Assembly (NCBI GenBank): GCA_021513715.1
Contig: CP084167.1
Coordinates: 2,784,001-2,848,000, forward strand
Direction of reading: 5' to 3'
Source of the DNA: Candidatus Heimdallarchaeum endolithica
Lineage (GTDB): Archaea > Asgardarchaeota > Heimdallarchaeia > Heimdallarchaeales > Heimdallarchaeaceae
DNA: 64,000 bases
Each line of letters begins with the position of its first letter. Positions within the stretch are counted from its first letter, which is position 1. Both the position numbers and the translations under genes were made by a program. Below the pieces are notes generated by a model, which saw only the letters and a program-made list of their open reading frames with translations, was not told the DNA's origin and did no database searches. Positions 45,749 to 45,928 of the stretch are shown here, piece after piece.

Positions 45749-45928
45749 TCTAATGGCAATTTCAGGTTCGGAATGAGTCTGAGTGTTGCCCTGCCGCTAT
45801 GGCCGCGACGAATCGCAGCGAATGGCCGTTCCCAAGTGCTCTCGCAACTTAGTACAGGACCACACGCTGGCAGGCTTAACTTTCCCGAGTTTCTGGAACA
45901 CATCCAGATCCTTTCTGCTGCCATTAGA
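45749..45928 (-). rRNA. rrf: 5S rRNA gene, circularly permuted (3' half 45881-45813, UUCG loop 45812-45809, 5' half 45808-45761) inside a 10-bp terminal inverted repeat
   Basis: Archaeal 5S signatures GCGGCCATAGCG, CATTCCGAAC, GTTAAGCC..CAGCG, GTACT..GCGAG..GGGAA and TTCGCTGC are all present, with the halves swapped. Helix I TCGCGGC/GCTGCGA is closed by TTCG; flanks are TCTAATGGCA/TGCCATTAGA. Confidence 0.92.

Follow-up and report, generated by a model that had tools for sequence, protein, structure and literature searches.

A conserved, circularly permuted 5S rRNA gene in Heimdallarchaeum and other Asgard archaea, with a putative splicing route to a closed ring

Gene order at the locus

The window analysed here is a stretch of 64,000 nucleotides from Candidatus Heimdallarchaeum endolithica, and positions refer to it unless another record is named. 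On its minus strand the back half of a 5S rRNA precedes the front half, within a precursor of 180 nt (45749-45928) that reaches from outer stem to outer stem and carries two putative bulge-helix-bulge (BHB) motifs. The features are:

45749..45928, minus: permuted 5S precursor, outer stem to outer stem, 180 nt
45919..45928, minus: 5' arm of the outer stem, pairing over 10 bp with 45758-45749; relatives have an equivalent stem of other sequence
45912..45918, minus: leader side of the outer (first-step) BHB, GCAG 45918-45915 and AAA bulge 45914-45912; predicted cut 45913/45912
45888..45911, minus: hairpin body of the 32-nt intron predicted at the junction, its stem formed by 45908-45903 and 45897-45892
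45881..45887, minus: leader side of the inner (final) BHB, CGGG 45887-45884 and AAA 45883-45881; predicted cut 45882/45881
45813..45881, minus: 3' half of 5S, first in order: 3' strand of helix II, loop E, helices IV and V, 3' strand of helix I (RF00001 31 bits; covariation)
45809..45812, minus: UUCG tetraloop at the helix I tip, linking what are the 3' and 5' ends of a normal 5S
45761..45808, minus: 5' half of 5S, second in order: 5' strands of helices I and II, helix III, 13-nt loop C, CUGAA
45759..45766, minus: trailer side of both BHBs; CUGA 45765-45762 and AAU, predicted first cut 45760/45759; CCUG 45766-45763 and AAA, predicted final cut 45761/45760
45749..45758, minus: 3' arm of the outer stem, pairs with 45919-45928
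45527..45617, minus: tRNA-His(GUG), downstream by about 130 nt; a normal CUGU/GCAG BHB brackets its 16-nt intron (45580-45565)

The host genome is one closed contig of 3,326,783 bases. It holds two permuted 5S copies, and no RF00001 match above the cut-off, that is no 5S gene of normal order, was found in it. The locus itself, with its halves swapped relative to a collinear gene, scores 31 bits against a cut-off of 38. The fold of the region beats 200 of 200 shuffled sequences (z -3.75). We are near certain that 45749-45928 on the minus strand is a circularly permuted and conserved 5S rRNA gene.

In the following, L-numbers denote loci, f-numbers families and G-numbers genomes. The second copy (L002, 1441-1587, minus strand; G000, contig C1, approximately 2471130-2471300) lies about 313 kb before the window and is divergent from a tRNA-Ser(GCT) gene. 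Its core is 94% identical to the window copy; the flanks differ.

For the closed Heimdallarchaeum genomes (3.32 and 3.08 Mbp) it was stated by the authors that 5S genes could not be predicted (PMC8813620); these genes are now located. 5S genes have seemed to be missing from Asgards, close relatives of eukaryotes, because the gene is permuted and starts with its back half.

About 40 nt upstream of the outer stem, TTTTTAAA at 45968-45975 (minus strand) is a possible TATA box. Relatives carry a TTAAAAA box about 30 nt upstream.

Distribution of the permuted order

In the host family, a DNA query matches all 30 genomes, 28 of them over most of the gene. When the covariance model is built in the permuted order, 79 of the 83 genomes of the class Heimdallarchaeia yield the gene, so the annotation can be mended at once. 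RF00001 exceeds its cut-off in four of the 83: two of these matches are bacterial-looking and lie on small contigs, one is permuted, and one is collinear with an insert.

Selection maintains the permuted core as a 5S rRNA: over 40 loci, 93% of the helix cells are paired, and both sides have changed at 25 of the 28 pairs. These numbers bear on the reading that the locus is a pseudogene or an assembly artefact, with the real 5S elsewhere. The sub-threshold RF00001 score would fit such a reading, but the closed genome contains no normal copy, and the recurrence of the same order in the 79 genomes, together with the paired and two-sided changes, refutes it; we give it practically no chance.

In a sample of 150 genomes from the Asgard phylum the gene order sorts by family. 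The order is permuted in f8-f10, f12-f14, f18, f19 and f21-f26, and normal in f11, f15, f17, f20, f27 and f28. Permuted lineages include Heimdall-, Hodar-, Jord- and Baldrarchaeota. The large class that contains f14, in our reading Lokiarchaeia, is permuted in most of its families; an exception is f27, which has normal order and to which a closed 4.4-Mb genome carrying three copies in tandem belongs. Most of the Asgard lineages sampled encode the back half of 5S first.

Outside Asgard no permuted 5S was found: a narrow genome-wide pattern scan matched five loci there, each of them a normal gene. The phylum of L163, a Nitrososphaerales record, was sampled with 150 genomes, in which scores reach at most 55 bits and the 15 top loci, L231 among them, are normal. 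For the other archaeal phyla the coverage is that of the narrow pattern scan alone.

Some loci are unusual in arrangement. L187 (G194, f11) and L051 (G028) have normal order, with inserts of about 30 and 20 nt, respectively, near the 3' side of helix III; the bin of L051 also holds permuted genes, and L051 may be contamination. L040 (G032) and L068 (G077) are tandem permuted 5S genes with a short spacer. Expansion segments of about 30 nt occur in helix IV or at the closed tip of helix I of permuted genes at L085, L087, L213, L215-L217 and L223.

Predicted splicing of the precursor

We propose that both 5S genes of the genome are working and that each is permuted with its break in the AA bulge of helix III. 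Leader and trailer of the transcript would fold into a BHB, the two-subunit tRNA splicing endonuclease EndA would cut each 3-nt bulge behind its second base, and RtcB would join the ends to a 121-nt RNA of normal 5S sequence. Judged from the DNA, transcription followed by cutting and joining by EndA and RtcB is very likely.

According to the original prediction, CCTG (45766-45763) followed by AAA (45762-45760) pairs with CGGG (45887-45884) followed by AAA (45883-45881), and cuts at 45761/45760 and 45882/45881 make a circle of 121 nt. The coordinates are right. The cuts give exactly 121 nt with the junction CCGAACCUGAAAGUUAAG, which was said to be absent from the DNA of the locus and is absent from the DNA of the whole genome too. 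Across this junction the predicted product aligns without gaps to normal Asgard 5S genes, and folded as a circle it is a three-way 5S with helices I-V and loops C and E. Of the original prediction, the permuted 5S, the BHB at CGGG/CCUG, the joining by EndA and RtcB and the 121-nt product are supported.

Covariation of CCTG with CGGG had been suggested as a check, and it is seen across families. The central helix has four of four pairs in 74 of 85 loci and at least three of four in 84 of 85 (20 families), formed by about 20 different pairings, for instance CAGG/CCUG, CGUG/CACG, CAAG/CUUG, CCGC/GCGG and CUGG/UCAG. When the best of three registers is taken for each locus and the null is handled alike, 87% of the true leader/trailer pairs have a complete central helix against 26% of the pairs swapped between families, related genomes not being independent. 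Three of four pairs plus an outer helix are found in 69% of the true pairs and in 6% of the cross-family swapped pairs. In a stricter test with one locus per family the means are 15.7 observed and 7.2 in the null, and the null maximum of 14 out of 20 overlaps the observed minimum of 13. In the host family the inner motif CRGG pairs with CCUG in all 30 loci. In L102, a locus of f3, the central helix is CGGA/UCCG as judged by eye.

The bulges show a further regularity. Outside the host family, 50 of 55 loci have exactly 3 nt of trailer bulge ahead of the outer helix (mean 8.5 bp); the counts for other bulge lengths are 0-5. Two bases are to be discarded, one from the middle of the leader bulge and one from the end of the trailer bulge, and these vary; those to be kept are nearly fixed. 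In L200 and L201 the kept base derived from the leader covaries with its partner in helix III.

The BHB motif occurs in four registers, and the cut rule still rebuilds a junction of normal length, except in f3, where one extra base is left in the bulge of helix III; this is a point against the rule. The rule also rebuilds a normal-length junction where the breakpoint is shifted to the start of loop C (L188, L192 and L214 in f14).

The strict form of the motif, a 4-bp helix with two 3-nt bulges and a flanking helix, is found in copy 2 and in most other families but not in the window precursor. In the window copy the outer motif has three of four pairs with a 10-bp helix, and the inner motif has four of four with no adjacent helix until the first of the two steps described below. 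In copy 2, CAGG-AAA stands with CCUG-AAA next to a 5-bp outer helix and the leader hairpin is a different one: this single-step BHB is predicted to reach the same 121-nt product in one step. The outer helices had been called imperfect. This holds for the CGGG/CCUG register only; in the GCAG/CUGA register a perfect 10-bp stem stands directly after a 3-nt bulge.

An RNA of about 180 nt that functions unspliced and linear, with leader and trailer as an expansion segment at the helix III bulge, had been named as the alternative. Such an insertion could be accommodated: positions 52-53 of 5S rRNA are among the least obstructed insertion sites (PMC7812874). Further, the permuted 5S of brown algal mitochondria remains unspliced (PMC4267664), and the unspliced fold of the window copy lies only 2 kcal/mol above the outer-BHB fold. 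However, it would leave unexplained why four leader bases, then unpaired, covary with the 3' strand of helix III, why both bulges are exactly 3 nt in size with variable discarded bases, and why there are breakpoints in loop C and extra BHB introns (L107, L189, L193, L188, L192). Bases 42-43 of loop C also touch ribosomal protein uL5 (PMC7812874). We regard an unspliced functional RNA as quite unlikely.

Several irregular loci were noted around these breakpoints. Two distant Asgard groups have BHB introns of about 30 nt in loop C of 5S, and these occupy one and the same site, CCG-AA|C (L107, L189, L193, L211-L213, L216). Within f14 the breakpoint has moved to the start of loop C, again inside a BHB, in L188, L192, L214, L215, L222 and L223. 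In L096 (G031, f2) it is seemingly in loop C at the intron site, with flanks that look more complex. The f3 loci (L037-L041, L097-L102) have a strict BHB; their product would carry a 3-nt AUA bulge in helix III and often a 12-nt loop C.

The enzymes for the proposed splicing are encoded in the genome. There are two EndA paralogues, one of 213 aa with the Tyr/His/Lys triad and one of 197 aa without it, and the two-subunit type of EndA accepts relaxed motifs (PMC4731332). RtcB lies within a 993-aa frame (L198, L199; G000, contig C1, 1674331-1677159), where its Pfam match is split after about residue 50, which suggests an intein. The BHB intron in the neighbouring tRNA-His, which ARAGORN calls without the intron, indicates that the splicing pathway is in use in the host genome. 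The presence of both EndA paralogues and of RtcB lends support to the predicted joining by EndA and RtcB.

For the window copy we propose two ordered steps. In the first, the outer BHB (GCAG/CUGA with the 10-bp outer stem) would be processed to a 153-nt ring. The new junction would then complete the inner BHB (CGGG/CCUG), with the base of the hairpin as its outer helix, and a 32-nt intron would leave. Cutting the outer BHB would give a 153-nt ring, where the base of the hairpin flanks both CCUG-AAA and CGGG-AAA. Given joining, this order is probable; it can only be inferred, since a single cut at the relaxed inner motif would yield the same product.

The leaders of the host family are consistent with these two steps. 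They keep NCAG and three bases directly after the outer stem, and NCAG/CUGR has four of four pairs in 19 and three of four in 9 of the 28 family loci, the window copy having three of four with a G.A mismatch. In these 28 loci pairing peaks at a bulge of 3 nt for both helices: the outer stem, behind the trailer bulge, then has 7.7 of 8 pairs (1.8-4.4 at other lengths), and the second-step helix 4.6 of 6 (1.8-2.7). The predicted intron is 31-33 nt in all 28 nested-type loci, and in 23 of them the outer-BHB fold is the lowest in energy of three folds; in the window copy the folds are only 2-3 kcal/mol apart. The same nested design is found in f18 (L088, L190) and in f32 (L207, a third lineage). 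L191 has an outer stem like L190 and L088 and lacks an insert exactly at the junction. The comparison of L191 with L190 indicates that the insert is dispensable.

The original prediction had given the leader another role, as a conformational switch in which it pairs with the 5' strand of helix III and frees CCUG for a single cut. Both the hairpin TCTGGA/TCCAGA and the possible leader duplex do exist in the window copy; the duplex is formable with -7.7 kcal/mol, in a fold 3 kcal/mol above the outer-BHB fold. However, in 28 of 28 nested-type loci of the host family the hairpin is the stronger of the two; changes in it are compensated within the hairpin and break the duplex. In copy 2 it is nearly absent (-2.2). 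Finally, it crosses the CGGG/CCUG helix as a pseudoknot and does not free CCUG. A switch is highly improbable; a nested intron lying behind a second BHB accounts better for the leader.

A nested hairpin could also be retained. The window copy would then undergo the outer splice only, and the mature RNA would be a 153-nt ring that keeps a 32-nt hairpin as an expansion segment. The sequence and length of the hairpin are well conserved within the host family, insertions are tolerated at this site (PMC7812874), and mismatches are frequent at the base of the outer helix of the second step. In spite of this, CRGG-ANA is kept in 30 of 30 family loci and yields exactly the normal junction, copy 2 would obtain the same 121-nt RNA in one step, and the insert is dispensable as seen from L191. 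We consider retention improbable.

The closed ring and its precedents

The product most likely stays a closed ring, since helix I capped by UUCG seals the old ends. In general the loop that caps helix I is short: it has 4 nt in 59 of 84 loci, with UNCG in 43, and shows no evident processing motif. Such a loop favours a closed ring, as in Thermoproteus SRP RNA and circular 23S rRNA. In several families helix I is lengthened or bears an insert.

The ring may instead be an intermediate, spliced as proposed and then reopened at or near the tip of helix I to an ordinary linear 5S. This is how permuted tRNAs behave: in Cyanidioschyzon their expression passes through a circular stage (Soma et al. 2007, as cited in PMC4267664), and in Thermofilum the linkers, at 1-7 nt, are about as short (PMC3218864). 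The 23S ring of Pyrococcus is reopened as well (PMC7758197; PMC12918454). The stable tip loops and the altered helix I described above speak against reopening, and so do closed 23S rings contained in archaeal ribosomes (PMC12918454) and the SRP ring, which is the mature form (PMC4731332). Reopening is rather unlikely; given joining, it is quite probable that the ring stays closed. Overall, a closed ring is somewhat more probable than other forms as the working 5S.

The proposed mechanism is of a known kind, and its closest precedent is the permuted SRP RNA. In Thermoproteus tenax and T. uzoniensis this RNA has been shown experimentally to be permuted and circular (Plagens et al. 2015, PMC4731332). 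There, as in the Asgard 5S, an essential RNA seemed to be missing, the gene halves are swapped, and leader and trailer carry a BHB. The BHB is cut by a heterotetrameric EndA and the ring restores a functional loop, and we propose the same design for the Asgard 5S. The likeness extends to swapped halves, an absent normal gene, terminal BHB cut sites that rebuild conserved sequence, and a genome encoding heteromeric EndA and RtcB. The differences are that the Asgard RNA is ribosomal and found in most sampled Asgard families rather than in two species, and that it comes in several registers, with a breakpoint that has moved in some genes and with introns that are nested or additional.

With the permuted tRNAs of Cyanidioschyzon merolae and Thermofilum pendens (PMC3218864; Soma et al. 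2007, as cited in PMC4267664) the Asgard 5S shares a 3' half upstream of the 5' half, a BHB at the new ends, a short linker between the old ends and possible introns. The tRNA ring is an intermediate because tRNAs need free ends, whereas in 5S the link is a stable tetraloop, which may stay closed.

The permuted 5S of brown algal mitochondria (Valach et al. 2014, PMC4267664) also has a hairpin that joins the old ends instead of an open helix I. Its new ends, however, lie at the three-way junction and it is linear, with no evidence of splicing; the Asgard break is in the bulge of helix III, between the two halves of a splice motif. The Asgard 5S is thus not of the algal type with unspliced ends at a domain junction.

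Circular and permuted 23S rRNAs of archaea (PMC12918454, PMC7758197) share with the proposed route the formation of rRNA rings through BHB splicing, rings that in some cases enter ribosomes. The archaeal 23S genes and the genes behind the circular 5S of Halobacterium and Sulfolobus are in normal order, unlike the Asgard 5S. These circular 5S by-products have variable ends and may be decay products (PMC12558985), whereas joining is needed in the Asgard 5S to rebuild helix III.

In the literature on 5S permutation and Asgard 5S that we searched, which covered few subscription papers, Valach et al. 2014 is the only report of a permuted 5S. For a cellular or archaeal 5S, this literature holds no gene-level permutation with splicing, only the unspliced algal form and the circular by-products.

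Gene order, the absent normal copy, conservation, covariation and the enzyme genes are all read directly from the DNA. The full explanation, in which a permuted gene is spliced by EndA and RtcB in two ordered steps to a closed 121-nt ring, goes beyond them and is reasonably probable. If the joining is true, the archaea closest to eukaryotes could not make ribosomes without tRNA splicing, and the 5S at work would have the shape of a ring. Further, the split between permuted and normal families is a rare genomic character for the phylogeny of Asgard, and the origin of the linear eukaryotic 5S gene becomes a question.

A wider scenario is possible, and we put it forward tentatively. Most Asgards, including all sampled families of Heimdallarchaeia, would make a closed 5S ring from a permuted gene, with two ordered splices through a nested intron in the host family. 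The permuted state may be ancestral in the phylum, some lineages having returned to normal order; a return may also have happened toward eukaryotes, should these have arisen inside Heimdallarchaeia or beside them.

The exact junction sequences make the predictions testable in existing metatranscriptome reads. The host-family junction has no match in metagenome contigs, a weak test given that the contigs returned were all longer than 1 kb. With a broader junction pattern, normal genes with a chance GGGAA upstream took up the matches listed from metagenome contigs.

Elsewhere in the window, judged from translations, 41615-41917 is a short transposase-like remnant, and 49334-50680 on the minus strand is a TnpB-like frame.
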